IMG/VR virus record: IMGVR_UViG_3300029582_000347
Coordinates: 1-26,455 of that record
DNA length: 26,455 bases
Direction: 5' to 3' (one strand)
Origin: a virus
Shown here in pieces: positions 1 through 24,386 of the stretch. Position numbers and translations under genes: made by a program. The notes beneath the pieces were generated by a model. The model worked only from the letters and a program-made list of their open reading frames with translations, was not told where the DNA came from and searched no databases. The stretch's first letter is position 1, and each line of letters opens with the position of its first letter.

Positions 1-282
1 CAGCATGGGATGGGAGTTTGTGAGGATGTATCATTTTCATTGCTCACGTCCTCGCCTCATTGCGTGGCCTACAATTATGTCGTGCGCCGCCTGACGCCGC
101 GGGAGTGCGAGCGTTTGCAGGGGTTCCCGGATGACTGGACATTGATTCCGTGGAGGGGCAAGCCCGCCGCGGATTGTCCGGATTCCCACCGCTATAAGGC
201 TGTGGGAAACAGCATGGCGGTTCCGGTCATGTGGTATATCGGAAGGAGAATTCAGATTGTAGAAAGGAGAATGGCGGCATGA
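1..282 (+). CDS. DNA (cytosine-5)-methyltransferase, C-terminal fragment (5' end outside window)
   Basis: Frame 1 is open from the window edge. It carries C5-MTase motifs IX/X: RLTPRECERLQGFPDDW and GNSMAVPV. Stop TGA at 280-282. Confidence 0.85.
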   Translation, partial: QHGMGVCEDVSFSLLTSSPHCVAYNYVVRRLTPRECERLQGFPDDWTLIPWRGKPAADCPDSHRYKAVGNSMAVPVMWYIGRRIQIVERRMAA

Positions 283-749
283 AAGCTGTACTTGATGCCT
301 GCTGCGGCTCCCGCATGTTCTGGTTTAACCGCCGCCATCCCGACGTGGTGTTCATGGACCGCCGGGAGGAAACGCACACGCTTTGCGACGGGCGCACCCT
401 GGAAATCAAGCCGGACGTCGTCGGAGACTTCCGGGAGATGCCTTTCAGTGACGGGGCGTTTCGCCTTGTCGTGTTCGACCCTCCGCACCTGATTCACGCC
501 GGGGAATCGTCCTGGCTGGCCAAGAAATACGGAAAACTGGACAGGGAGACTTGGCAGGAGGATTTGAAGGCCGGTTTCCGGGAGTGTTTCCGGGTTTTGG
601 AACCGGGCGGCGTTCTGGTGTTCAAATGGTGTGAGGATCAGGTCAGCACGGCAGAAGTGTTGAAGCTGGCCAGCCATGAACCTTTGTTCGGCCACCGCCG
701 CGGGAAGACCGTCTTCCTGGTATTTATGAAATCTACAACCCCCAACTGA
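279..749 (+). CDS. SAM-dependent methyltransferase, probably an amino (N6-A/N4-C) DNA methyltransferase
   Basis: ATG 279 overlaps the upstream stop (ATGA), with AGGAGA at 265-270. Motif I-like VLDACCGS and motif IV-like FDPPH are present. The track start at 231 lies inside the upstream gene. Confidence 0.6.
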   Translation: MKAVLDACCGSRMFWFNRRHPDVVFMDRREETHTLCDGRTLEIKPDVVGDFREMPFSDGAFRLVVFDPPHLIHAGESSWLAKKYGKLDRETWQEDLKAGFRECFRVLEPGGVLVFKWCEDQVSTAEVLKLASHEPLFGHRRGKTVFLVFMKSTTPN

Positions 750-761
750 CGCTTTTTTGAT

Positions 762-1529
762 ATGGCCGGAGACTGGATCAAAGTTGAACACACAACGCCC
801 GACAAACCCGAAGTGGTAAAGCTGGCCGGCATCCTTGGAATTGATCAGGATGCCGTGGTTGGCAAGCTTCTTCGCCTCTGGATTTGGGCCGATCAGCAAT
901 CCGTCTCTGGTAACGCCATTACCGTTACAAATTCGTTTCTCGACCGTCTCGTATTCTGCCCCGGCTTCGCCGCCGGGCTTGTCAAAGTCGGCTGGTTGAA
1001 TGGACGCGAGGGCCTCCTTTCAATTCCCAATTTTGACCGCCACAACGGCCAAACCGCCAAAAATAGGGCCAATACGAACCGCCGTGTTGCGAATAGTAGA
1101 AAAGCTCATAATGAGCGAGTTGCAAAAACATGTAACGCAAATGTAACGCTCGGAGCGTTACAAAAACCGTTACCAGAGAAGAGAAGAGAAGAAGATACTA
1201 CTACTACAACTACAACCGGGCGCGAAGTCCGCCAATTTCCGCAGGACGTTTCCGAGGTGGACCGTTTTATGGCCGCCCAGGCTTTACACCCGATCGGAGA
1301 CGAGCTGACACGGTGTGCCGAACGTTTTTTCAACGAGCAATCCGCCGTTGGGTGGCGGAACAGGCACGGCGTGCCTCTCTTGGATTGGCGACCGATGGCC
1401 CGCCAATACGCCGCTACCTGGGCACGGAACAATGCGGACGCATCCGGGCTGAAACCCTCCCATGCTGCGGGATCCCCGCCAAAATCAACATTCAAACCCT
1501 CAAGAAGAGATGACCTCTGGAAAGATTGA
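762..1529 (+). CDS. Putative replication initiator / replisome organiser
   Basis: 255-aa ORF directly upstream of the DnaC-like loader. It has an N-terminal DNA-binding-like region, a poly-Thr/acidic linker, and a GTAACG iteron cluster inside the gene. Function is inferred mainly from position and the internal repeats. Confidence 0.4.
   Translation: MAGDWIKVEHTTPDKPEVVKLAGILGIDQDAVVGKLLRLWIWADQQSVSGNAITVTNSFLDRLVFCPGFAAGLVKVGWLNGREGLLSIPNFDRHNGQTAKNRANTNRRVANSRKAHNERVAKTCNANVTLGALQKPLPEKRREEDTTTTTTTGREVRQFPQDVSEVDRFMAAQALHPIGDELTRCAERFFNEQSAVGWRNRHGVPLLDWRPMARQYAATWARNNADASGLKPSHAAGSPPKSTFKPSRRDDLWKD
909..1173. repeat. Iteron-like (T)GTAACG(C) repeats, candidate phage origin
   Basis: GTAACG/CGTTAC occurs at 910-915, 923-928, 1132-1137, 1143-1148, 1157-1162 and 1168-1173. 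The last four lie within 45 bp as two direct plus two inverted copies. They include a perfect palindrome, TGTAACGCTC-g-GAGCGTTACA (1142-1162). Confidence 0.45.
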
Positions 1530-2253
1530 CGACCCCATTGACGCCCGGAAAGTCCTGGACGGAAAAATAGACAGCCTCCTGACGTCGCTGGAAGCGCTGG
1601 CTGCAGATGACGGAAAAAGCATCGAAGAGATGGAGGCGGAAGCGATGGCTGCCGAGAAGCAGCGGGAAGAAGAACGCCGGGCGACGTACGAACGCCTGGG
1701 CCTGGTGGACCGCGGCTTTCCCCGACGTGCTCTTGATTGTCTCGATGAAGTAACCGGAGAACCGTGGAAGAAAGCTCTCCGTGATGCCTACCGCACCGTT
1801 TTAACGCCTGGGAGCATCATTGTGCTGAACGGGCGCTATGGCACCGGGAAAACGGTATTGAGCACGTTTCTGGGGCGTGTCATGTACAGGCGGAAGAAGC
1901 GCGTCCTTTATTCCAAGGCTTACGATTACACGATGGCTTTGAGGGAAACGTTTAACGGAAATGGATCGGAATCCGCCGTCATGGCCCGATACAAGGCGCC
2001 GTATCTGTTGGTGCTCGACGAATATCACGAGGTTAAGGATACGGAATTCACAGGCCCAGCACTGGAAAGGCTCATTGATTACCGGCACCAGAACGGCAAG
2101 CCGACTATCCTTATCGCCAACTACAACCCTACAGCCCTGGAAGATCGTCTTGGCCCCGCCATTGTTTCCCGCATCCACCTTTGCGGCATCATCATCACCT
2201 GCGACTGGGAATCATACCGGGAGATCAATTACCGGCGGAAAGCCGAACAATGA
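1510..2253 (+). CDS. DnaC/IstB-like AAA+ ATPase (helicase loader)
   Basis: Walker A GRYGTGKT and Walker B LLVLDEY. ATG 1510 is preceded by AAGAAGAGA. An alternative ATG at 1462 would overlap the upstream gene by 68 nt. Confidence 0.75.
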   Translation: MTSGKIDDPIDARKVLDGKIDSLLTSLEALAADDGKSIEEMEAEAMAAEKQREEERRATYERLGLVDRGFPRRALDCLDEVTGEPWKKALRDAYRTVLTPGSIIVLNGRYGTGKTVLSTFLGRVMYRRKKRVLYSKAYDYTMALRETFNGNGSESAVMARYKAPYLLVLDEYHEVKDTEFTGPALERLIDYRHQNGKPTILIANYNPTALEDRLGPAIVSRIHLCGIIITCDWESYREINYRRKAEQ

Positions 2254-2345: not shown

Positions 2346-2861
2346 AGGAAAAAGAAAGCATCACCTACAACCAAAAGAAAACCGGGGAGGCCGAGCCTCT
2401 ACACCGAGGATTTAGCCCAGGAAATAGCCGTCCGGCTAGCCAATGGCGAAACCATGAAAGCCATCTGCGCCGACGCTCACATGCCGGACGTCTGGACCGT
2501 CTGGCACTGGCGGGAAACCAGGCCGGAGTTTTCCCAACTTATTCAATGCGCGCGGGAAGCGCAGTCGGAAGCCATGCTTGACGCCTGTCAGGAGCTGGCC
2601 GACGAGGCCGCGAAAGTCGCCCTCGACCCGGAATGCGGCTCCGCCGCCGTCGCCGCAAAAAAGCTGGCCATTGAAACGCGGCTGAAAGTCGCCGCCCGAT
2701 TCGCGCCGGAAAAATTCGGCGACCGGGTCCGTCAGGATGTCGCCGGCGTTCCCGGAGCGCCGCTGGAACGGAAAATCACCCTGGACCCCGATCAGCTGGC
2801 CCAGCTGCAGGAAGACGAGAAAACCGCGCTGGAAACCATCGCCGGCAAACTCCAAGCTTAA
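2346..2861 (+). CDS. terS: Terminase small subunit (N-terminal HTH type)
   Basis: KRKPGRPSLYTEDLAQEIAVRLANGETMKAICADAHMPDVWTVWHW...FAPEKFGDRV matches the common GRPSKYTPE...IC...MP...W...KYGD small-terminase pattern. The first canonical start (ATG 2454) falls inside the HTH. There is no ATG/GTG/TTG in frame between the stop at 2310 and 2454. The start given here is the in-frame AGG at 2346 and is a hypothesis. Confidence 0.8.
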   Translation, partial: RKKKASPTTKRKPGRPSLYTEDLAQEIAVRLANGETMKAICADAHMPDVWTVWHWRETRPEFSQLIQCAREAQSEAMLDACQELADEAAKVALDPECGSAAVAAKKLAIETRLKVAARFAPEKFGDRVRQDVAGVPGAPLERKITLDPDQLAQLQEDEKTALETIAGKLQA

Positions 2862-2867
2862 CAGACC

Positions 2868-4241
2868 AGGACACGCCTCCCCGTCAGCTTCTTCCTCCGC
2901 CATGTCCTCCGCCTGGATCCCTATCCCTGGCAGGTGGAGGCCATCAAGGCGTTGTCCCTCGGAAAGCTGACCCTGGGAGGGAAAAGCGTGGCTCTGGTCG
3001 CCCCCAACGGATCCGGCAAGACGAGCAACTGCATCGCTCCGGCCATCCTGTACTTCCTCACCTGCTTCCCGAAGGGCCAGGTGCCAGTCACGTCGTCGTC
3101 GTGGATGCAGGTGGAAAAGCAGCTCTTTCCCGCGCTCCGCCGCTACATGGACAATCCCTTCTTTGACGGCTGGACCTTCAACAAAACCGAAATCCGCACG
3201 CCGGAGGGAGGCTTTGCCGTGGGCTTCTCGACCGACAACGCCGGCCGCGCGGAAGGATGGCACCCGAAAATCTCGCCCGACGTGGACCCCGTCTTTTATG
3301 TTCTTGACGAGGCCAAAACCATCCCGGACTCCATCTTCACCGCCGTTTCCCGCTGCACGCTCTTCCACGCGTTCATCACCTCGTCGCCGGGGGCCGATTC
3401 CGGCACCTTCTACGACTGCTTCCACAAAAATTCATCTCTCTACTACAAAATCCGCGTCAAATACGAGGATTGTCCCCACATTGAGATCAACGACCCGGGC
3501 AAGGCCGAACGCCTGAAAAAAGAATACGGCGAACAGTCCTCCTTCTACCGCTCCGCCATCCTCGGCGAATTCACCGACCTCGACGGTCAGTCCGTCATTC
3601 CCCGGCGCGCCCTCATGGAGCTGGTCAACAACCCGCCTCCCTTTCTGGACACCGGGGAGACCTGCGGCGGCTTCGACTTCGCGGCCGGAGGCGACGAAAA
3701 CGTCTTCGCGGCCGGGCAGGGCAACCGATTCTTTATAGCCGACCACTGGTCGGACCCGGACACCGTAGGAGCGCGCGGACGGTTCCGCCGCCGGGCGTCC
3801 GAACTCGGCATCCCCGCCGACCGCATTTACGCGGACGGAGACGGCCTTGGACTACCCATCATTGACGACTTCCGCGCCGAGGGCTTCCCGGTGCACTCCT
3901 ACCGGGGCGGCTTCCCGGCTGACGACACTCAAGCCTTTGTCAACCTCCGCGCCCAGGCGTGGCGGGCCCTGGCACGCGCCATCGAAGAAAAGGAACTCAT
4001 CCTCGACATTGACGAGGACACGATTGAACAGCTGGTAGCGCCCCGGCTTCAAACCGACGCGATCGGCCGCGTCAAAATCGAAAGCAAGGAAGACATGGCG
4101 AAACGGGGCGTCCGTTCTCCCGACCGCGCCGACGCCCTCGTCATGGCCTGGCACGCGCGCCGGCACAGCGGACTGGCCCGGACGCTGGGAGCTTGGTACT
4201 CGCGTCCCGTGTCATCCAAACGCGCCATCGGGAGATATTAG
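2868..4241 (+). CDS. terL: Terminase large subunit
   Basis: Walker A VAPNGSGKT and Walker B FYVLDEA. Nuclease-domain acidic motifs ADGDGLG and SPDRADAL. The track start is GTG 2934, but the conserved LDPYPWQ lies upstream of it. The start given here is the in-frame AGG at 2868, which is the only shared candidate start. Confidence 0.9.
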   Translation, partial: RTRLPVSFFLRHVLRLDPYPWQVEAIKALSLGKLTLGGKSVALVAPNGSGKTSNCIAPAILYFLTCFPKGQVPVTSSSWMQVEKQLFPALRRYMDNPFFDGWTFNKTEIRTPEGGFAVGFSTDNAGRAEGWHPKISPDVDPVFYVLDEAKTIPDSIFTAVSRCTLFHAFITSSPGADSGTFYDCFHKNSSLYYKIRVKYEDCPHIEINDPGKAERLKKEYGEQSSFYRSAILGEFTDLDGQSVIPRRALMELVNNPPPFLDTGETCGGFDFAAGGDENVFAAGQGNRFFIADHWSDPDTVGARGRFRRRASELGIPADRIYADGDGLGLPIIDDFRAEGFPVHSYRGGFPADDTQAFVNLRAQAWRALARAIEEKELILDIDEDTIEQLVAPRLQTDAIGRVKIESKEDMAKRGVRSPDRADALVMAWHARRHSGLARTLGAWYSRPVSSKRAIGRY

Positions 4242-4243
4242 GG

Positions 4244-4272
4244 TTGACAATATATCAATATATCCGTATATG
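4244..4272 (+). promoter_or_regulatory. Sigma70-like promoter for the phage tRNA
   Basis: TTGACA (4244-4249), a 17-nt AT-rich spacer, then TATATG (4267-4272). The -10 ends 17 nt before the tRNA 5' end. The candidate host tRNA-Cys promoter has the same geometry. Confidence 0.4.
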
Positions 4273-4288
4273 AAGATATGTAATCAAT

Positions 4289-4362
4289 CGCAGGGTGGTG
4301 AAACGGTATCACGCGGGGTTCCTGTCCCCGAGTAGGAGGTCCAATTCCTCCCCCTGTAACCA
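4289..4362 (+). tRNA. Phage-encoded tRNA, anticodon CCU (formally Arg/AGG) with initiator-tRNA-like features
   Basis: Hand-folded 74-nt cloverleaf: CGCAGGG TG GTGA AACGGTA TCAC G CGGGG TTCCTGT CCCCG AGTA GGAGG TCCAATT CCTCC CCCTGTA A CCA. All stems pair fully except C1xA72 and G2-U71. The CCA is encoded. Confidence 0.85.
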
Positions 4363-4385: not shown

Positions 4386-5750
4386 AGGTTCAACGCATTA
4401 AAAAATATCCTCAACGCCCCGAAGCTAGTCGCCCAACAGGAGACCAGAATCAAGGAGCTGGAGACGGATCTCGCCCGGCGAGCCCTGACGGAACAAAGCC
4501 GGCAGCCCAACCGTCCCCAATGGTACGAATACTGGGACCCGTTACAGGGAGCCGACTTGAGCACTCTTGTGGAGGCCCGGAATGAAGCCCGGCGGGGAGC
4601 CTTTGCCCGGCAAATGCTGATCTGGGATGAAATCATTTATTCGGACGGGCTGCTGGGCATGCTCTACTCCCGCTTGATCGAAAGCGTCGCCATGCAGGGC
4701 TGGAAGATTGACGCCGCGGACGAAAGTCCGGAGGCCCAGCGCCAGAAAACCGCCCTGGAAGAATTCTACCACTCCGTCAACGGGCTGCAGCAGTCTTTTG
4801 GACAGCTGGCTTCCGCCATGTTCTACGGTTACGCCCATCTCCAATACATCGAGGATTCCTGGGGCCGCCGATTTGAATTCATCCCGCAGCGTTATTGGGT
4901 GCGGCCGGGAGAGTTGAATCAATGGCAGTTCAACCCCCAGTGCTATATCGGGGTCGATACTGGCGAAAGCGTGGAAGAAGAAACGCTCGTCGTGATGGAG
5001 CACCGGTATCCCATCCTGTTCCCCGCCGCCCGCGCCTCCTTTGAGCGCAACCACGCAAAGATAACGTGGGACAACCACATGGACCGCTACGGGAGCGCCC
5101 CGGTCATCATCACCGCCCCCAAGGACGCGAGCGCCGCCGTCATGGACGCGCTGGAACGGGCCTGCGAACAGCTTAAATCAGGCGCCTCCATCGTGCTGCC
5201 TCCTGACTGTAAGGCGGAACCGCTCAAGGCGTCCAACATCAACGAAAACTATTTTCTCTCGCGCATCAACATGGCCGACAAGGACCAGGTGCGTTTTGTG
5301 ATGGCCGGAACCCTGACCGTCCTAAACGAATCAGGATCCGGCACGCTAGCCGGGTCCGCCCATACGGACAGCTGGAACGCGGTGGTGTCCGCCGTCTGCT
5401 CCAAAGTGGCGGAAGCGTTCAACACCGCCATCAGCCCGCTTATATTGGAAGACGGCGAACCGCTGGCCCGCCTCCACATCACCTTTGACACTGTCCAGAC
5501 GCCATTGCAGAAGGCCGAGGAAATCGCCGCCCTTGCGGACGGAGGCGTCCGTCCGGAGAAAACGGAAATCGAAGAAAAGATCGGCATGTCGATCGAGGAT
5601 TCGAGGGAGCCCGTGCCGACGGCGGCGGCAGCCAACAGGGAGTCGGGAGACTCCCTCATTCCGCCCGACGCCTACGAACAGCTGCAGCAGATGATTTACG
5701 CCGGCCTCATGAAAGGATTTAACGATGATCAGTACCAGACAAATCAATGA
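4386..5750 (+). CDS. Portal protein (Mu gp29 / DUF935-like)
   Basis: Lies downstream of terL with appropriate size. It carries the DUF935-like core LLGMLYSRLIESVAMQGWKI...AMFYGYAHLQYIE. The track start is TTG 4557, but the frame stays open and protein-like back to the tRNA. The start given here is the in-frame AGG at 4386. Confidence 0.7.
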   Translation, partial: RFNALKNILNAPKLVAQQETRIKELETDLARRALTEQSRQPNRPQWYEYWDPLQGADLSTLVEARNEARRGAFARQMLIWDEIIYSDGLLGMLYSRLIESVAMQGWKIDAADESPEAQRQKTALEEFYHSVNGLQQSFGQLASAMFYGYAHLQYIEDSWGRRFEFIPQRYWVRPGELNQWQFNPQCYIGVDTGESVEEETLVVMEHRYPILFPAARASFERNHAKITWDNHMDRYGSAPVIITAPKDASAAVMDALERACEQLKSGASIVLPPDCKAEPLKASNINENYFLSRINMADKDQVRFVMAGTLTVLNESGSGTLAGSAHTDSWNAVVSAVCSKVAEAFNTAISPLILEDGEPLARLHITFDTVQTPLQKAEEIAALADGGVRPEKTEIEEKIGMSIEDSREPVPTAAAANRESGDSLIPPDAYEQLQQMIYAGLMKGFNDDQYQTNQ

Positions 5751-7324: not shown

Positions 7325-8248
7325 AGGGCTAATCTATTTTATTCAGCTGTTCAGTTTACCGATGTCCTGACCGCCTTTTCCGTGGGAGCGGGGAATACGG
7401 AACGGGACTCCATGATCAACCGCATCGCTCCGCTCGTCCCGGTATACGATATTTCCTTCCAATATATGGTATTGGACACGCCGGCCGCGTTTACGGTGGA
7501 ACCCATCCAGGTGGCGCCCGGTGAACCTCCCCGCCAGACTTCCATGCTCGGACGGACCGAAACCGATACCCTGCAGGCGTACGCGCTTACGGATCCGATT
7601 CCCGATATTATGCTGGGGGTCAACAGGGAAAAGGCGCAGGCGATTCTGCTCGCCCATGCCCGCTTCCTGGAATCGAAATTCGTCACATCTTACGAATACC
7701 AGCGCGCCAAGCTCATCGAGAGCCAGGTTCCGGCAGCGTCCGGTTATGGAGATTGGGACAATGCGCAGAAAAACCCGCTGACGGATTTGGACAACGCGAT
7801 CCGCACCATCAATGCCACTGCCGGGAAAATGCCGAATACGATTGTTTTCGGCGCCAATGCCTGGGCCCGGCTTCGGTCGAACCCGCTGGCAAGGCAGGTA
7901 GTGTCGCACAACAGCGTCGGCCTGTTCGACGAAGATCTGCTGAACAGATCGCTGTATACGCGGATGAAGGAAGTCTACGTCAACAACATGCCTTTCTACG
8001 ACCCCTCCGGTCAAGGGAAGACAATGATGGAAGACGACGTCTACATCCTCTACAAAGAAGATTCTCCGACGCAGTTTGACGCCTCGGCTATCAAGACCTT
8101 CGGGCTGAACGGACAGTTCCGCCGGGAAGTAACGACGGAATACTTCCCGACCAACAAGGAAACAAAGGTGACCAACCGGGTTTACTCGTTGACCAAGCTG
8201 ACCAACCCCGGCGCGATTATCCGCATCAACACGGCGTCCGCCGATTAA
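7325..8248 (+). CDS. Major capsid protein (protein E-like)
   Basis: E-family-like pattern: DWDNAQKNPLTDLDNAIRTINATAGKMPNTIVFGANAWARLRSNPL. Size and position fit. Canonical candidate starts are GTG 7382 and ATG 7412. The start given here is the in-frame AGG at 7325, the weakest of the AGG cases. Confidence 0.7.
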   Translation, partial: RANLFYSAVQFTDVLTAFSVGAGNTERDSMINRIAPLVPVYDISFQYMVLDTPAAFTVEPIQVAPGEPPRQTSMLGRTETDTLQAYALTDPIPDIMLGVNREKAQAILLAHARFLESKFVTSYEYQRAKLIESQVPAASGYGDWDNAQKNPLTDLDNAIRTINATAGKMPNTIVFGANAWARLRSNPLARQVVSHNSVGLFDEDLLNRSLYTRMKEVYVNNMPFYDPSGQGKTMMEDDVYILYKEDSPTQFDASAIKTFGLNGQFRREVTTEYFPTNKETKVTNRVYSLTKLTNPGAIIRINTASAD

Positions 8249-11556: not shown

Positions 11557-12207
11557 AGGGCTACTACATACGACCCCACTTTTAGCAACCGCAACGTGAC
11601 GCCGCAGATTACCGGCGTTCTGGCTATTTTCCTTCCCGACGGGATCAAGGTGACCGAGGACGAGGGAGCTTCTTACGTCACCGGGCCGGACCAGTTTCCG
11701 ACGCCTCCGACATCTCCGCCGACGGATCCGACCGCCGGGCCCGAAGCGCCCTGGGTGAGCTTCGGGCTGCTGGGCGCGTTCCAGTCCGTCGCCACGCAAG
11801 TCGAAGGAGAAGTGACGCGCTTTTACGGCGGCGCGCTGGGCTACCGCCAGCAGCGCAAGAACACGACGACCGGCAAGCGCCTGACCTTTACCACGCCGGA
11901 CATGTCCCCCGAATGGTTCCAGCTGTCTTTCGCTCTGGGAGCGCCTCCCGCCAATGGAGAGGAATCGACCACCGTCGGACATGGCGGCGACAACAAGATT
12001 GAGGGGTATCTTCACTTCTGGTACCAGAACGACGTCGGCACGATCTATCTGGTCGGAACGGCGCATGGCGCGTTGCGCCTCCTTCAGGATCCGGAACATA
12101 CCACGGCGATCGCTTCGCCCCAGTTCGAGTTCGAGATGGATTACCGCGGCAAGTACCAGTTCACGCCTTCCAATGTGCAGGACGTGACGCCGACGCCGGG
12201 TTCCTGA
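11557..12207 (+). CDS. Putative major tail protein
   Basis: About 216-aa ORF after the head-tail joining genes, followed by a hairpin terminator, which is typical for a highly expressed major structural gene. The track start is GTG 11596. The start given here is the in-frame AGG at 11557, giving MATTYDPTFSN. Confidence 0.45.
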   Translation, partial: RATTYDPTFSNRNVTPQITGVLAIFLPDGIKVTEDEGASYVTGPDQFPTPPTSPPTDPTAGPEAPWVSFGLLGAFQSVATQVEGEVTRFYGGALGYRQQRKNTTTGKRLTFTTPDMSPEWFQLSFALGAPPANGEESTTVGHGGDNKIEGYLHFWYQNDVGTIYLVGTAHGALRLLQDPEHTTAIASPQFEFEMDYRGKYQFTPSNVQDVTPTPGS

Positions 12208-12219
12208 CGTGTTTCACCA

Positions 12220-12254
12220 GGGGGCGGATGACGCCCCCGCATCCTTGTTTTTTT
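12220..12254 (+). terminator. Rho-independent-type terminator/attenuator after the major tail gene
   Basis: GGGGGCG (12220-12226), loop GATGA, CGCCCCC (12232-12238), then GCATCCTTG and T7 (12248-12254). The U-tract sits 9 nt from the stem, so this is only moderately canonical. Confidence 0.5.
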
Positions 12255-12255
12255 C

Positions 12256-14259
12256 AGGCAGCAGGCAGGCAAATATGATATCAGGACCGTCACGGGGCTG
12301 AACCAGTCCCTGGTCGTCCGCGTCGTGGATTTCCAGGGTGACCCCGTCGATATGAGCGGCGTCACCCTGCGCGGAGCCGTCCGCCTCAAGACGGGCGTGA
12401 CGGAGTTCGGCTTTTCTCGAGACGACGAGGGCAACGGCGTGATTTCCTGGGAGTCGGTGCCTGCGGGCATGTGGTCCTATGACGTCTTCATGGACGACGG
12501 CAGCGAAGAAAGCCCCCTTCTCTACGGTTGCTTTGTTTCTTCGGGCCGGGTAACGCCGGACTTGCCCGGCGAGCAGCAGGCCGTGGCGGGCGCGGTCGTC
12601 GTGCAGCTGCCGGAAGGAAGCGGCTGCGTGCAGGTAGTGCTTGATAATGCGTCCAGCGCCGCCTGGTACGCGGAACAGGCCAAGAAGTACGCGGAGAATT
12701 TTAGCCTGTCCGTTGACGAAGTCACCACCGGGGAACCGGGGACGGCCGCCGCTGCGGAAGCCGTCAAAGGGGAGGCTGCAGGCTCCTATAAGCTCTCCTT
12801 CACCATTCCCCGGGGGGATGTCGGTCCCGAAGGGCCGGCAGGCCCGCAGGGAGAACGGGGCGAAACCGGACCCGAAGGGCCTCAGGGCCCCCGCGGCGAA
12901 ACCGGGGAACGGGGGCCGCAGGGCGAAACGGGAGAGCAGGGCCCGAAGGGAGATCCGGGCCCGGCCGGACCGCAAGGTCCCGAAGGCCCGCAGGGGCCGG
13001 AAGGTCCGGTGGGGCCCCAGGGCCCTCAAGGGGAAAAGGGAGATCCTGGTACTCTGACATCCAACGTTGGCGATGTGAATATCGGGGGAGCCCTGACCGC
13101 GGAGTCAGCTACCGTGAACGGGCCTCTGGTGGTCAACAACCCGGACGGCAGCGGAAGCGTCGGCACGCTGAATCAGATTTACGGGATCACCCGGTTTTAC
13201 CAGTCGGTCGATCTTCGGTCGGGCGGATGGCTGAGAGGGACATTCATGGTAGAGACTGGAATCCTGAATATCAGCCAGGGCGCCAGCTTCAACTGCGCGG
13301 GGACATCCACGTTTTCAAGCGCCCTCAACGCCAATGGAGGCGTCAACATCCCGTTGGCCGTGGGTGCGCCGACCGATACGTCAGCGGTCAATCGCCTGTA
13401 TGCCTCGGGCATGGGAGGCGCAGCCAATGCTTATACGGCGGCGGCTTTCCTGAATACGGACACGCTGACAACTACCGGCACGGCAACGGTGACTAAAACG
13501 GTTCCCTACCAGATGGCCCGCATAGGCATTCCCGCGGGCGCTCACACGACTATTCAGGCCCCCTTTGAAGGCCCCAGTTCCCAATGGAATTATTCTTCCT
13601 GGGCCGGCTTTTCGTTTGTCTGGCGGGCCACGGCCGCAGCGAAGATAACGATGGGCATCGGACGGGGAGCGAAAACAATCAGGGCGGACCTTACCACCGA
13701 CTCCTACACGATTATTCCTGGCAATGACCTGGCATTTAATTCCGGGGAGATTCTGGACATCACCTTTGACAACGTGCGCGATACAACGCGCAACGGATAT
13801 ACGGTGCGGGTGCGGGAAATTTATGCGCTGACGTCCGCCGATGGATGGCAGGTCAAGACGACGACCAGCTTTATCCCGGCGACGCAGAACGAGCCCGTCC
13901 CGTGGACGGTGTGCAAGATTATTTACCAGCAGCAGACGGTTGCCAACAGCAGCGTTTATGAAAACCTGGGAGGCCTCTGGCTGCTGGTCACGGGGGCACA
14001 GACCAACAACCTGTTCAAGATCGCCACCTGCCGGGGCGTCTCCAATTTTGAGACCGGCGTCGGCATTTCCAGATGGGTGACGGATGTGATCAACACCACC
14101 AGCGGCACGGCTTCCGTTTATGCAGGGCCCGGGGAATATGCCTATTACCAGCCGGGCAATGTGAACCCCCTCTTTTACGGGTTGGACGCGATAGGAACGA
14201 ATGCCATTGAATCCGAGGCAACCGCCGCTTTTGAAGATATTAACGTACCAATAGAATGA
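12256..14259 (+). CDS. Tail fibre protein with collagen-like triple-helix repeat
   Basis: 26 uninterrupted G-X-Y triplets, an N-terminal Ig/BppU_N-like segment ([30 protein letters not shown]) and a long C-terminal beta-rich region. The track start is GTG 12325. In-frame AGGs occur at 12256 (used here) and 12283. Confidence 0.8.
12814..13050 (+). repeat. Collagen-like (G-X-Y)26 coding repeat
   Basis: [18 protein letters not shown] ... GEK GDP G, read directly from frame 1. Confidence 0.95.
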
Positions 14260-19918: not shown

Positions 19919-22090
19919 AGGAACCACGACATCACCATCAATGACTTGCTGGCCCTCAAGCCGTCGAGCCTGACCCACGACCAGCAAAGCTTTTCCGTCT
20001 CCACCATCACCGCGGTTTATCCCGTGCGAACGCTGGGGGAGGTCTTGCCCTTCCAACAGTTCGATACTGTCGCCATCTCCCAAAACGGGAACACCATTCT
20101 TTCCGGCCTCGTTTCCAGCATCGAAAAGGCCTACAGCGGCTCATCCCGTGCGTGGAAAATCGTCTTTTCCGATCCCTGGTATTGGCTGGACAACTGCTTT
20201 GCGCTGGATTCCGAATGGAAGCCGGTCTTCTCCATGTGGAATAAAGTCAGCGGAGGGGGCGGCATCATTCCGAAGATAAGCATTTCCTCCGCGCTCTCCC
20301 GGGTGCTGAACCTCGCCAAACACCACCCGGCGGACTACGAGCTGCGTATCAGCGACGACAAGATGCTGATTCCGTGGAACGCCTCCTGCGATACGCTGGG
20401 CAGCCTCCTTCAATCCATCCGCCGCTGGTCGCCCCGGATGGTCTCGTACTACGACTACAGCGGAGCGCGCCCCAAGCTCATCATCACGGACTATGACGCC
20501 CTGACGCCCATTGCGCTTCCCTTGCAGCCGACGGAAACGGTCAAGTCCATGGACGTCTCCCTGATCCCCCGGGGCGACCTCGTTCCGCCCTGCGTGGCTA
20601 TCGTCGCGGAAACGACCGGCAGCAACGGCTACCGCGTCTCCTACCTGTCCAAATACCCGGAAGACGGGGACCCGACCTTGCCGCACTCCATTGTTTACCG
20701 AACGTCAGTAGACTTCTACTACTCCAAATACAGTTCTACGGGGGAGCCGGTAGAAGATCCGCAGCCGGTGCAGGGCACCAGGGCCGGCAGCCTGTCTTAC
20801 CAGCGCATGAAAGTGACGGGGACCAGGATTGACCAGAACGACATGATCAACAGTTTCTGGAAAAATCATTTCCCGTGGATGAAAGATGTAGGAGCAATCG
20901 CCGTCTATGACCAGGATCCGACCATCACCGGGAAGCCCTGGGACGGAACGGAGGAAGACAAGCCGCGAGGCTACAACACCGCCGCCACAGGCTATGAACT
21001 GACGGACGGGCAAATTCATACCAAATCCATCCGCCCGCAATGGTGCAATGCCACTATCAAGCAGCGTCTCGCCATCCCGGAAAGCGCCCCTGCCAAGTGG
21101 CGGGAGAAATTCAAGAATGTGGGGACCTTGCAGGGTGTGCCCTGCTTTTGGGAAGAATTCTCGGTAGATCTGGTCACCATGGACCGCCCCTTTGCGAGCT
21201 ACCCCATCGACGGCATCTACAACGGGGAGCAGCCCTCCAACGGGCCGGAAGAAGGGGAATCGCCGGAACCGTCGGAAGGTGTGCCCTATGGGGACATTGC
21301 AAAAACGGTGTGGGAATCCATGCAGGAATTGCCCTGGGACGGCTCTATTTCCTTTGTCGCGCTGGGGGATGCTCAAACGCGGCAATACATGGGCCGCCGC
21401 GTCTCGCTGCTGGGAGGGAACCCCGCATGGCAGAATATCAACACCATGATCCAGACGGTGAACCGCGACCTGCAGACCAACGTCATTACGTTATCCTACG
21501 GCGCGCCGGAACAACTGGGAATTGAAGAATGGGTAGAATTGAAGCGCGTGAATGCCACATCACGCAGATCCTCCACGCTGGAAAACATGCAGGGCGCGCC
21601 GGAATCGACGGAATACGCCTTTGACCCCAAGCCGGAATCCCCCACCATCAGCCAGCATATTACCAAGTCCACCGGGGAAGCCACGCCCGCGCCGGAATAC
21701 GGCTTCCAGGTGCGGGTACAGAAAGATACGGAGGGAGCCGTCACCGGGGCGCAAATCAAGCCCGGCGCGCTCTACCTGAACGGGAATCTGCTCGGCAAAT
21801 ACCCGCAGGGGGGCAGTTCCGGTTCCTCGTGGGTGCAGCTCACCCAAACCAGCGGGGAAGTATGGCTCAACGTCCACTTTGACCAGGACGCCAAATTGAC
21901 GGGCGTTGACGTCTCCGGCATTCCGGGGACGGTGTACCCAATCAGGCTTGCCGGAGAAAAACCGGGCGTCAACTTCGACTATTCCTTCCTGATTGCCGAC
22001 ATCGAAGATGACCAGGTGACGCAATACGCCCTGGGCATGATTCAGATTCCGGTCTTCGGAGGAACCTTCTACCCCTACGGACCAGCATAA
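19919..22090 (+). CDS. Tail tip / distal tail (host-specificity) protein
   Basis: About 723-aa ORF after the tape measure. The track start is TTG 19946. The start given here is the in-frame AGG at 19919, giving MNHDITINDLLALKPSSL. The family is not recognised; the call is by size and position. Confidence 0.5.
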   Translation, partial: RNHDITINDLLALKPSSLTHDQQSFSVSTITAVYPVRTLGEVLPFQQFDTVAISQNGNTILSGLVSSIEKAYSGSSRAWKIVFSDPWYWLDNCFALDSEWKPVFSMWNKVSGGGGIIPKISISSALSRVLNLAKHHPADYELRISDDKMLIPWNASCDTLGSLLQSIRRWSPRMVSYYDYSGARPKLIITDYDALTPIALPLQPTETVKSMDVSLIPRGDLVPPCVAIVAETTGSNGYRVSYLSKYPEDGDPTLPHSIVYRTSVDFYYSKYSSTGEPVEDPQPVQGTRAGSLSYQRMKVTGTRIDQNDMINSFWKNHFPWMKDVGAIAVYDQDPTITGKPWDGTEEDKPRGYNTAATGYELTDGQIHTKSIRPQWCNATIKQRLAIPESAPAKWREKFKNVGTLQGVPCFWEEFSVDLVTMDRPFASYPIDGIYNGEQPSNGPEEGESPEPSEGVPYGDIAKTVWESMQELPWDGSISFVALGDAQTRQYMGRRVSLLGGNPAWQNINTMIQTVNRDLQTNVITLSYGAPEQLGIEEWVELKRVNATSRRSSTLENMQGAPESTEYAFDPKPESPTISQHITKSTGEATPAPEYGFQVRVQKDTEGAVTGAQIKPGALYLNGNLLGKYPQGGSSGSSWVQLTQTSGEVWLNVHFDQDAKLTGVDVSGIPGTVYPIRLAGEKPGVNFDYSFLIADIEDDQVTQYALGMIQIPVFGGTFYPYGPA

Positions 22091-22889: not shown

Positions 22890-24077
22890 CTAACGGGCCA
22901 CGCCGACTGCGATCTTGCTCATGGCCGCCTGGACGTCCGCAGAATCCGGACGGAAATAGACCCGTTCAATTTCTTCGGAATCGTGTCCGACGATGAAGCG
23001 GCATAAATCCGGGGACACCCCGGCCAGGCGCAGGACGGTCACGGCGGTCGCCCGGAGGCTGTGGAAGCTCTTTTCCGAAAGCCGGTGACGGTCGCCTCTT
23101 ACTTCCCCGGGCATTTCGCGGATGATTCCGTACGTTTTCAAGAGTGTGGTGAACTCCGTGGAAAGCTTATCGGAACGCCCGCCCGCATGGGCATGGCGAA
23201 GTGCCGCCAAAGGGAACACGTAATCGTTCACCCGGTTGAGCAGACGCCTTTCCAACACCTCTTTCAAGGGCTGGATGATCGGCTTGTTCATGCGGCGCCG
23301 GCTCTTCTGCGTGGTCATGAACAGGAAGGAGTTCTTCAAGTCAATCTGCTCCCATTTCAGCGTCGCCAGGTCTCCGAGGCGCTGGCCTCCGGTGTAGAGG
23401 CACACCCGCACCAGATCCGGCCATTCGTCCGGGAAGCATTCAATGATGGTATTTACTTCCTCCATCGTGAACGCGCCGCGCAGCTGCTTTTCCGCCTGGT
23501 GGTCCGACCGGGAAGGCATGACGCCCCGGAACGGATTCCGGGAAAGGATCTCCCGGTCTACAGCGACATTGAACGCCGTGGAAAGCGTGGACACGTAGCG
23601 GATGACGGTACCTGCGGAAACGCGCTCTAATTCAGTTTCTACAAAATCTTTAGCCATGCCTTTATTCAAGGCGGCCAGGGGCATATTCCGTCGGTCTCCG
23701 AGGTACGCCAGCAGCCGGCGGACGGCCATGCCGTCCCGCTCATAGGCCCGCTTCTTGTTTTTCCGTCCGTCCAGCCAGTCAAACAGGAACCGGCTCACCG
23801 TCATGCCGTTCATGGTGGCTTTCAGCACGCCCGCTTGATCTCCGGCAATGGCCTTCACCTTGTCCAGGTCAAAAACCCCATAGCGGGCTTCCTTCTCCAT
23901 CTCCTGGGCGACGAGACGCGCCCGCGCTTCATTCTGGGACATGACCGATTTTTTATTCGCTCCCGGGAGAAGCGCCCTGGGAACCACGTCGATTCCGGTG
24001 GTTTTCCGCAGCTCTTTTCCGTCCAGAGACCGGAAGACGGCCACCCATTTATTGTTGCGTTTGATGATGCCTGCCAT
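22890..24077 (-). CDS. int: Tyrosine recombinase / phage integrase
   Basis: N-terminal arm-binding-type domain (MAGIIKRNNKWVAVFRS). Catalytic region includes GGQRLGDL, HSLRATAVT, VGHDSEEIERVYFRP (R..HxxR..H..Y). Adjacent to a tRNA gene. Confidence 0.95.
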   Translation of the reverse strand: MAGIIKRNNKWVAVFRSLDGKELRKTTGIDVVPRALLPGANKKSVMSQNEARARLVAQEMEKEARYGVFDLDKVKAIAGDQAGVLKATMNGMTVSRFLFDWLDGRKNKKRAYERDGMAVRRLLAYLGDRRNMPLAALNKGMAKDFVETELERVSAGTVIRYVSTLSTAFNVAVDREILSRNPFRGVMPSRSDHQAEKQLRGAFTMEEVNTIIECFPDEWPDLVRVCLYTGGQRLGDLATLKWEQIDLKNSFLFMTTQKSRRRMNKPIIQPLKEVLERRLLNRVNDYVFPLAALRHAHAGGRSDKLSTEFTTLLKTYGIIREMPGEVRGDRHRLSEKSFHSLRATAVTVLRLAGVSPDLCRFIVGHDSEEIERVYFRPDSADVQAAMSKIAVGVAR

Positions 24078-24082
24078 AGTGC

Positions 24083-24170
24083 TGTACAGTCCTTAGACAA
24101 TGTACAGTCGCATGTACAGGGTACTTTTTTCTGTCAGGTGCTTTCAGGTGCGCTCAAAACTGCGCAAAAC
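24083..24170. repeat. Short direct repeats in the int-proximal att arm (candidate Int/Xis arm sites)
   Basis: TGTACAG at 24083, 24101 and 24113. TCAGGTGC at 24134 and 24144. TGCGC(T)CAAAAC at 24149 and 24161. Confidence 0.45.
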
Positions 24171-24212
24171 GTAGGAAAATCAAGACCCATTCCGTCGTGT
24201 GCTGACGAAAAT

Positions 24213-24288
24213 TGGCATCGCGTACGGGACTCGAACCCGTGTTGCCCGCGTGAAAGGCGGGAGTCCTGGACCGCTAGACGAACGCGAC
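24213..24288 (-). tRNA. tRNA-Glu (anticodon UUC)
   Basis: Reverse complement is GTCGCGTTCGTCTAGCGGTCCAGGACTCCCGCCTTTCACGCGGGCAACACGGGTTCGAGTCCCGTACGCGATGCCA. Canonical cloverleaf, anticodon loop CTTTCAC, close to E. coli tRNA-Glu. Confidence 0.95.
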
Positions 24289-24311
24289 TTGAACCGGCTT
24301 TGACAACATCT

Positions 24312-24386
24312 TGGAGGCGGGAGCGGGAATCGAACCCGCGAATAACGATTTTGCAGACCGTCGCCTTACCACTTGGCTACCCCGCC
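24312..24386 (-). tRNA. tRNA-Cys (anticodon GCA)
   Basis: Reverse complement is GGCGGGGTAGCCAAGTGGTAAGGCGACGGTCTGCAAAATCGTTATTCGCGGGTTCGATTCCCGCTCCCGCCTCCA. Anticodon loop CTGCAAA. U73 discriminator is typical of tRNA-Cys. Confidence 0.95.

Follow-up and report, generated by a model that had tools for sequence, protein, structure and literature searches.

Natural departures from AUG initiation in bacteria are read by the normal initiator transfer RNA (tRNA), and they include GUG, UUG, rare cases of CUG or AUU (infC) and the GTC of Streptomyces sigR. Among phages, Borges and colleagues reportedly described, in 2022, suppressor tRNAs through which TAG or TGA is reassigned in late genes. Phages also carry elongator tRNAs, which have been assigned codon-usage or anti-defence roles (eLife 2023, PMC10264068). 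The bacterial initiator tRNA is set apart from elongators by a C1xA72-type mismatch and three G:C pairs (PMC11497404), and initiators with altered anticodons are known as engineered molecules carrying CUA, AAC, CCU and others (PMC11744186; 10.1101/2021.05.25.445580); no natural one was found in the literature searched, most subscription journals being outside its coverage. An engineered Escherichia coli initiator tRNA (i-tRNA) with anticodon CCU gave 35- to 402-fold induction of AGG-start reporters; among 12 pairs compared in six E. coli strains, CCU/AGG ranked first everywhere except in Nissle 1917, where it was second to UAA/i-tRNA-UUA, both above AUG (10.64898/2026.04.16.719103); the ribosome therefore accepts the AGG/i-tRNA-CCU pair. 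Here, we analysed a 26,455-nucleotide stretch of viral DNA (the window; IMG/VR record IMGVR_UViG_3300029582_000347, positions 1-26,455), to the whole of which all coordinates refer, and which is a temperate Akkermansia muciniphila phage (prophage). Based on comparisons of its sequence, we consider it likely, with a probability of about 85%, that AGG is the start codon of seven late genes of this phage and is read by a phage-encoded initiator-type tRNA with anticodon CCU, referred to below as tRNA(CCU), whose gene lies between the large terminase (terL) and portal genes.

This predicted arrangement can be set against each of the described systems. As in the engineered orthogonal i-tRNAs (amber i-tRNA-CUA, i-tRNA-AAC and i-tRNA-CCU), an initiator body would carry a new anticodon with the elongation meaning of the codon kept (PMC11744186; 10.64898/2026.04.16.719103); however, those molecules were built in the laboratory on the E. 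coli metY body, whereas the phage tRNA is natural, has another body, is part of a late operon and would serve several essential genes. Natural non-AUG starts likewise place a non-AUG codon in the start position, but they use first- or third-position wobble with the CAU anticodon, whereas AGG is mismatched at the second position and a dedicated tRNA is supplied. The nearest natural analogy, in logic only, would be the stop-codon recoding of phage late genes: in both cases a phage tRNA alters the meaning of a codon concentrated in late or structural genes, plausibly tying translation to the phage programme. Recoding, however, acts in elongation on in-frame stops, whereas the AGG system would act in initiation, on a sense codon and once per gene; the late open reading frames (ORFs) of the window are open under table 11, and the sole phage tRNA is tRNA(CCU). 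With phage elongator tRNAs the locus shares a phage-carried tRNA gene, but tRNA(CCU) has initiator hallmarks, lacks A20 and A37, and belongs to a phage poor in AGG, which accounts for just 39 of 7,300 internal codons (0.53%; 9% of arginine codons). A role for the tRNA in codon supplementation was rejected on account of this low frequency.

The initial annotation of the window had drawn attention to the junction between the small terminase gene (terS) and terL (2859-2936, plus strand), and direct reading agrees with its description. The two genes share one frame and are split by the terS stop TAA (2859-2861), after which 24 sense codons containing a PWQ-type motif precede the first canonical start, GTG 2934. 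These codons read CAG ACC AGG(2868) ACA CGC CTC CCC GTC AGC TTC TTC CTC CGC CAT GTC CTC CGC CTG(2913) GAT CCC TAT CCC TGG CAG and translate to QTRTRLPVSFFLRHVLRLDPYPWQ, so that AGG 2868 is followed by 21 further sense codons, including those for PYPWQ, before GTG 2934. The only start-like codons in this stretch are, as had been stated, AGG 2868 (context ACC-AGG-ACA) and CTG 2913, and the claim that the rest of terL is devoid of AGG is borne out by the count of its arginine codons (CGC 23, CGG 9, CGT 2, CGA 1, AGA 1, AGG 0). The mechanical ORF list, in comparison, begins terL at GTG 2934 and yields a product of 435 amino acids.

The alignment with homologues that the initial annotation had called for places the TerL N-termini before PWQ, and hence the TerL start upstream of GTG 2934. 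Searching with the extended TerL yielded 676 homologues, and the best 120 were aligned; 117 of these extend across W-(Q/N) and carry a median of 23 residues before the tryptophan (range 10-59), compared with the 20 that result from a start at AGG 2868. The other three are gene calls that are cut short or incomplete, and two of them, P0004 and P0008, share 93-95% identity with the window TerL. Relatives that begin with ATG single out AGG 2868 within the stretch, because their methionine aligns there or at most two codons away: the methionine of P0005 (M-NYVPPVYFLRHVLG) aligns exactly to AGG 2868, that of P0002 (M-KIPAAWFLREVLKIDPYPWQ) is one residue off, and those of two related phage contigs, L002 and L035, are offset by 1-2 residues. 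CTG 2913 is unconserved, the aligned codon encoding isoleucine in P0002 and P0003. Across 21 distinct sequences, the 21 codons from AGG to GTG show variable sites distributed 6/3/18 by codon position and zero stops. Based on these alignments, AGG 2868 is almost certainly the start codon of terL (2868..4241, plus strand), and it is AGG in nearly all tRNA-bearing relatives. The product matches phrog_2 (E = 8e-26), contains the Walker A sequence APNGSGKT with the conserved Y-x-W-Q motif upstream of it, and corresponds at its C-terminus to the large terminase nuclease domain 8dkr; the same search of PDB sequences, intended to locate PWQ within an ATPase domain of known structure, matched the C-terminal nuclease domain alone. 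In the public gene calls P0001 (448 amino acids, 967 member sequences), P0004, P0007 and P0008, TerL is N-terminally truncated or begun at ad hoc codons, which indicates that standard pipelines mis-annotate these genes.

A stop-to-stop frame survey of the window identified the AGG-start genes, all on the plus strand. Their relatives were compared in about 80 Akkermansia phage contigs, alongside the unannotated isolate record of Akkermansia phage DTMo-2021a (L001; CP084202.1, host A. muciniphila NBRC 114322), which is 94-96% identical to the window and retains the tRNA and all seven start AGGs. The frame of terS (2346..2861; Sf6_terminase family, PF20901 and phrog_1482) has no canonical start before ATG 2454, which lies 36 codons past AGG 2346; the AGG is followed by KKKASPTTKRKPGRPSLYTEDL and is found in all relatives. 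Position 1 of the Pfam profile PF20901 (Sf6_terminase) falls 18 residues upstream of ATG 2454, and residue 6 counted from the AGG aligns to position 3 of phrog_1482. The portal gene (Portal_Mu, 4386..5750) reaches its next canonical start, TTG 4557, 57 codons past AGG 4386; its residue 25 aligns to position 26 of phrog_113, it has an orthologue in L002, and the AGG is present in 31/31 loci. For the major capsid gene (7325..8248), the next canonical start is GTG 7382, 19 codons past AGG 7325, residue 12 aligns to position 14 of phrog_1005, and ATG occupies the same codon in L002 and L035. The structural gene g11557 (11557..12207), which is conserved, 216 codons long and not assigned to any family, has its next canonical start at GTG 11596 and keeps AGG in 12/12 loci; its L002 orthologue is 81% identical and carries ATG at the AGG-aligned codon (ATG-ATTLSPEYANRNVSPQITG). 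The collagen-repeat tail fibre gene g12256 (12256..14259; PHROG tail-fibre families and Pfam Collagen repeat) has its next canonical start at GTG 12325 and keeps AGG in 9/9 loci. A second AGG in this gene, at 12283, is CGG, CGA or AAG in relatives, and its replacement by CGG in DTMo-2021a identifies it as an ordinary arginine codon. The large tail-region gene g19919 (19919..22090, 723 codons) probably also starts with AGG, which is kept in L001 and in the homologue found in L055/L057, and its leader resembles that of g11557 (taaccatttcaagcatcAGG versus taaccattttacaagcagcAGG); this start is the least certain of the seven.

In terL and the five others apart from g19919, no ATG, GTG or TTG occurs within 13-57 codons after the AGG. 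Variable sites in these stretches between the AGG and the canonical codon total 50/33/136 by codon position, with no in-frame stops, and such third-position-biased variation indicates that the stretches are under coding constraint. About 20 other genes of the phage start with ATG, and the leaders of its late genes are A/C-rich for AGG and ATG starts alike.

The tRNA(CCU) gene (4289..4362, plus strand) begins 48 nucleotides downstream of terL and was identified by ARAGORN, which labels it tRNA-Arg, by the Rfam tRNA model (48.7 bits) and by covariation within its family. Its sequence is CGCAGGG-UG-GUGA-AACGGUA-UCAC-G-CGGGG-UUCCUGU-CCCCG-AGUA-GGAGG-UCCAAUU-CCUCC-CCCUGUA-A-CCA. It contains a C1xA72 mismatch, marked as non-standard at 1:72 in the Rfam alignment, and three consecutive G:C pairs beside the anticodon loop (G29:C41, G30:C40 and G31:C39), together with C3:G70, A73 and an encoded CCA. 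In an alignment of 13 distinct sequences of the family, six stem pairs show compensatory changes, as in the T-stem variants GGAGG/CCUCC, GAAGG/CCUUC, GAAAG/CUUUC, GGGGG/CCCCC and GAUGG/CCAUC; position 1:72 is unpaired and the three G:C pairs are invariant in 13/13, as are C3:G70 and A73, with T73 in two metagenome copies. Outside this alignment, a further copy (L211 6279-6352) carries U31:G39 in place of G31:C39 and a D-loop change of GG to GT, in a phage that still uses AGG starts; it could be misassembled or in decay. The formyltransferase determinants G2:C71, C3:G70 and A73 are present in the family.

A Watson-Crick 1:72 pair serves the use of a tRNA by EF-Tu, and A20 and A37 are typical of bacterial tRNA-Arg species that read AGG. 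In a reference set of tRNAs with encoded CCA from other viral contigs, position 1:72 forms a standard pair in 99 of the 101 elongators, the other two looking like delimitation artefacts, and the three-G:C-pair feature occurs in 0/101. Classical initiators on viral contigs mostly have the acceptor CGCGGGG/CCCCGCA or CGCGGGA/UCCCGCA; the acceptor of the tRNA(CCU) family, CGCAGGG/CCCUGCA, is one base pair away from the common CGCGGGG/CCCCGCA. Relative to bacterial initiator formylmethionine tRNA (tRNA-fMet; E. coli metZWV/metY), tRNA(CCU) has in common C1xA72, C3:G70, A73-CCA, G29-31:C39-41 and, in most copies, G2:C71, but differs in its CCU anticodon, U11:A24, short 7-nucleotide D-loop, G37, a mostly C55 T-loop position and its location in a phage, and the attached amino acid is probably not methionine. 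The CCU anticodon, found in place of CAU in every copy, is the one property that fits an elongator tRNA-Arg(CCU), with which C1xA72, U20 and G37 disagree. Judged by the two defining features and the main formylation determinants, tRNA(CCU) would therefore be an initiator-type tRNA with a reassigned anticodon and not a tRNA-fMet.

Directly past the terL stop and 16 nucleotides before the tRNA, a promoter-like element (4244..4272, plus strand) combines TTGACA (4244-4249), a 17-nucleotide spacer and TATATG (4267-4272). Its conservation in most of 33 distinct upstream sequences suggests that it may be the tRNA's own promoter. A consensus promoter scanner missed this element, as the scanner demands T as the last base and the element has G.

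The relatives provide the closest comparison between AGG and ATG starts. In L002, whose TerL is 69% identical and in which no tRNA was found in 21 kb, the start falls exactly at the AGG-aligned codon in the portal gene (TTG) and in the capsid gene, g11557 and g12256 (ATG), and the terL ATG sits two codons upstream of the AGG-aligned codon. The contig L003, in which no tRNA was found either, has its terL ATG within two codons of the AGG position. Two tRNA-bearing contigs are evolutionary intermediates. In L004 (74% TerL identity), terL starts with ATG and the portal gene with AGG. In L035 (also L247, IMGVR_UViG_3300010163_000397), which has the tRNA with a D-loop change of GG to GC, terL and the capsid gene start with ATG, and terS, the portal gene, g11557 and g12256 keep AGG; its terL ATG is one codon downstream of the AGG position, and its capsid gene begins ATG gct aat cta ttt where that of the window begins AGG gct aat cta ttt, which by alignment is an exchange of AGG and ATG at the same codon.

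Conservation was counted in 32 tRNA-bearing loci. The start AGG is kept in 119/121 cases, both exceptions being ATG, whereas 15 internal AGGs of the same genes are AGG in 102/304 and otherwise CGN, AGA, lysine or glutamine codons; the difference gives a Fisher p of 4e-40, which is indicative only, as the loci are phylogenetically related and the counts overstate their independence. For terL itself, AGG is present in 24 of the 25 tRNA-bearing loci counted, L004 being the exception with ATG. The tRNA and AGG starts occur together in 43/43 close TerL relatives reaching past terL, and the contigs of the three close relatives without the tRNA stop at terL. Neither the tRNA nor AGG starts occur in distant TerL relatives (24-30% identity), and AGG starts were never seen without the tRNA in the relatives compared. 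Based on these alignments, the AGGs are at the true N-termini and appear to evolve as start codons exchangeable only with ATG, always in the company of a cognate tRNA with initiator hallmarks.

A tRNA pattern that left the anticodon free returned 25 IMG/VR contigs, 43 metagenome copies and two CRISPR (clustered regularly interspaced short palindromic repeats) spacer matches, all with CCT, and no sibling tRNA with another anticodon was found with it in IMG/VR, metagenomes or genomes. Where the record name of a metagenome contig gives a source, the contig comes from a human-gut assembly. Relaxing the pattern brought in five further variants of the same family and nothing else. The idea that reassignment is a wider phenomenon among classical phage-borne initiator tRNAs was discarded, as CAT is retained in 121/121 classical bodies from viral contigs. 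When one representative genome of each species was scanned with the anticodon left free, a CRISPR spacer matching the tRNA came up, but no genuine copy of the tRNA itself.

The two spacer matches lie in CRISPR arrays on the Akkermansia chromosomal contigs L046 (372-482) and L086 (1519-2335), which share a 32-nucleotide repeat, GTCGCAC[C/T]CTCACG[G/A]GTGCGTGGATTGAAAC. One spacer in each array is identical to positions ~8-41 of the tRNA gene (window 4296-4329), so that host immunity targets the tRNA gene and the link to the host is confirmed. The same tRNA(CCU) also occurs in a second, satellite-like element (L054, L055, L057 on the reverse strand, L059 and L066), in which neither terL nor the portal gene adjoins the tRNA. 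Its order is integrase, terS-like gene, sometimes a g19919 homologue with AGG, tRNA, Toprim/DnaG-like primase and ERCC4 nuclease, and the terS-like gene also appears to start at AGG. In L059 the satellite directly follows the phage's own tRNA, with tRNA copies at 565 and 3253, 2.7 kb apart, which may reflect integration at the tRNA gene.

Taken together, we propose that the phage supplies a second initiator tRNA, with anticodon CCU instead of CAU, that would pair perfectly with AGG in the ribosomal P site; through this pairing, AGG would become a phage-private start codon for terS, terL, the portal and capsid genes, g11557, the tail fibre gene and g19919. Internal AGG would still be decoded as arginine by the host elongator tRNA. 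By analogy with what is described for initiators (PMC11497404), C1xA72 would bar the tRNA from EF-Tu-mediated elongation and permit its formylation, and the three G:C pairs would license P-site binding under the scrutiny of IF3. Profile scans found neither a synthetase nor a formyltransferase among the genes of the window or of the complete phage L001; a Leu/Phe-transferase match in a RecT-like protein (16.9 bits, against a cut-off of 22.7) was taken as chance. Host enzymes would presumably charge the tRNA, most likely arginyl-tRNA synthetase (ArgRS), because C35 and U36 are arginine identity elements and methionyl-tRNA synthetase depends on CAU. AGG-start proteins may then begin with (formyl-)arginine and not methionine; arginine is our best guess for the attached amino acid, and its formylation is uncertain. 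A four-base pairing of G37 with the base before AGG was rejected, as this base is C in 6/7 AGG starts but also in 10/20 ATG starts (Fisher p = 0.18), and L081 has A37 yet C at -1. Speculatively, the purpose could be a translational gate tying packaging and virion genes, and hence particle production, to the phage tRNA. The full picture of natural orthogonal initiation, in which an Arg-charged tRNA(CCU) reads AGG as a private start, terminase, portal, capsid and tail proteins begin with (formyl-)arginine, virions are gated by one tRNA, a satellite copies that tRNA and host CRISPR targets its gene, is put forward tentatively, as we judge its chances to be a little below even.

Several observations weigh against initiation by tRNA(CCU), or against its charging with arginine. 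The window tRNA has G2:U71, where 12/13 variants have G2:C71, and all 13 have U11:A24, where the initiator feature, of minor weight in E. coli, is A11:U24. At position 37 the tRNA has G, replaced by U in L004 and by A in L081, and at position 55 most copies have C, with U in L004, L023, L030 and L035; A37 is usual in tRNAs that read A-initial codons, and U55 is near-universal in tRNAs. The D-loop AACGGUA gives U20, so that the tRNA lacks A20, which E. coli ArgRS uses as a major identity element, and efficient arginine charging is not assured; in addition, the E. coli formyltransferase is reported to accept basic aminoacyl groups poorly. The AGG starts have no Shine-Dalgarno sequence before them, which is also true of the late genes with ATG. 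For g19919, TTG 19946 lies just 9 codons after the AGG, and it has no tRNA-less orthologue with which to compare it.

Several alternatives would dispense with an initiator role for tRNA(CCU). The host fMet-tRNA(CAU) might read the AGG starts weakly, as near-cognate codons, with the phage tRNA being a plain tRNA-Arg(CCU) that supplements a rare codon. Non-canonical starts do occur in bacteria, AGG supports weak, IF3-repressed initiation in E. coli reporters (PMC6868393), and the ARAGORN call is tRNA-Arg. We nevertheless regard this as quite unlikely: a second-position mismatch is the worst for initiation, yet the capsid and portal genes need high output, and the tRNA combines C1xA72 with three G:C pairs, a combination present in none of the 101 elongators, while lacking A20 and A37. 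Nor does supplementation sit well with AGG at 0.53% of codons, or near-cognate reading with AGG starts that never occur without the tRNA. A different view would take the downstream canonical codons (GTG 2934, ATG 2454, TTG 4557 and so on) as the real starts, with the upstream stretches untranslated. Gene callers do pick those codons, as in the 435-amino acid ORF and the truncated P0001, but the stretches that this would leave untranslated vary at third positions without acquiring stops, match orthologues position by position from residue 2 onward, and hold both the Y-x-W-Q motif of 117/120 TerL homologues and the start of the Sf6_terminase domain, all of which makes this view highly improbable.

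TerL could also arise fused to TerS, if ribosomes read through the terS TAA, or else by frameshifting or by reinitiation without a defined start, as the shared frame and the mere two codons between TAA and AGG might suggest. Such routes would leave terS itself unexplained, as well as the portal gene, upstream of which lies the tRNA gene, and the capsid gene, g11557 and g12256, which are out of frame with their upstream genes across gaps of 15-49 nucleotides; they would account neither for the invariance of the AGG nor for its exchange solely with ATG, and we consider them exceedingly improbable. ATG and AGG are one base apart, so that a sequencing or assembly artefact, or a modified base read as G, might be imagined, as might a host-wide reassignment of AGG to methionine. 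The chance of any of these is close to negligible, given that the same AGGs recur in about 80 independently assembled contigs and the isolate phage record, that internal AGG alternates with CGN and AGA and so encodes arginine, and that the scan of one genome per species returned just a CRISPR spacer and no genuine copy of the tRNA. Initiation at AGG by the phage tRNA(CCU) is therefore the reading that we prefer.

The early region of the window is mosaic: in the comparison of window 1-2253 with L001 1-10800, DTMo-2021a matches only 261-766 and 2265 onward. This region codes for a C5-methylase fragment, an S-adenosylmethionine-dependent (SAM) methyltransferase and an IstB/DnaC-like ATPase, and a GGAGG Shine-Dalgarno sequence precedes the early methyltransferase gene, whereas none precedes the late genes. 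Between g11557 and the tail fibre AGG 12256, a G+C-rich hairpin (GGGGGCG-gatga-CGCCCCC) followed by a T-run at 12220-12254 looks like an intrinsic terminator. On the minus strand, gene and profile scans identified a tyrosine integrase (22893-24077), and ARAGORN and Rfam identified host tRNA-Glu(UUC) (24213-24288) and tRNA-Cys(GCA) (24312-24386); the integrase and host tRNAs (22893-24386) probably mark the right prophage end beside a tRNA attachment site, and host sequence appears to make up the ORF from 24812 onward.

If confirmed, initiation at AGG by tRNA(CCU) would be a natural exception to the rule that bacterial proteins start with methionine at AUG, GUG or UUG through a single initiator tRNA species, with a virus supplying an initiator for a sense codon. 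Should the tRNA indeed be charged with arginine, this would be the first time that a start codon is reassigned in nature and that bacterial proteins naturally begin with a residue other than methionine, and the phage would make such natural starts in bacteria directly testable. For synthetic biology, it would provide an orthogonal pair of initiator and codon that nature has already optimised, CCU/AGG being also the pair that performed best in engineering work. For annotation, the consequence is that automated gene prediction shortens or overlooks the genes for terminase, portal and capsid in a widespread family of Akkermansia phages. Within this family, the dependence on tRNA(CCU) would add a new level of late-gene control and, at the same time, an Achilles heel, since one tRNA gene would be needed for all virion production. 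As Akkermansia muciniphila is of therapeutic interest, the control of its prophages is of importance.

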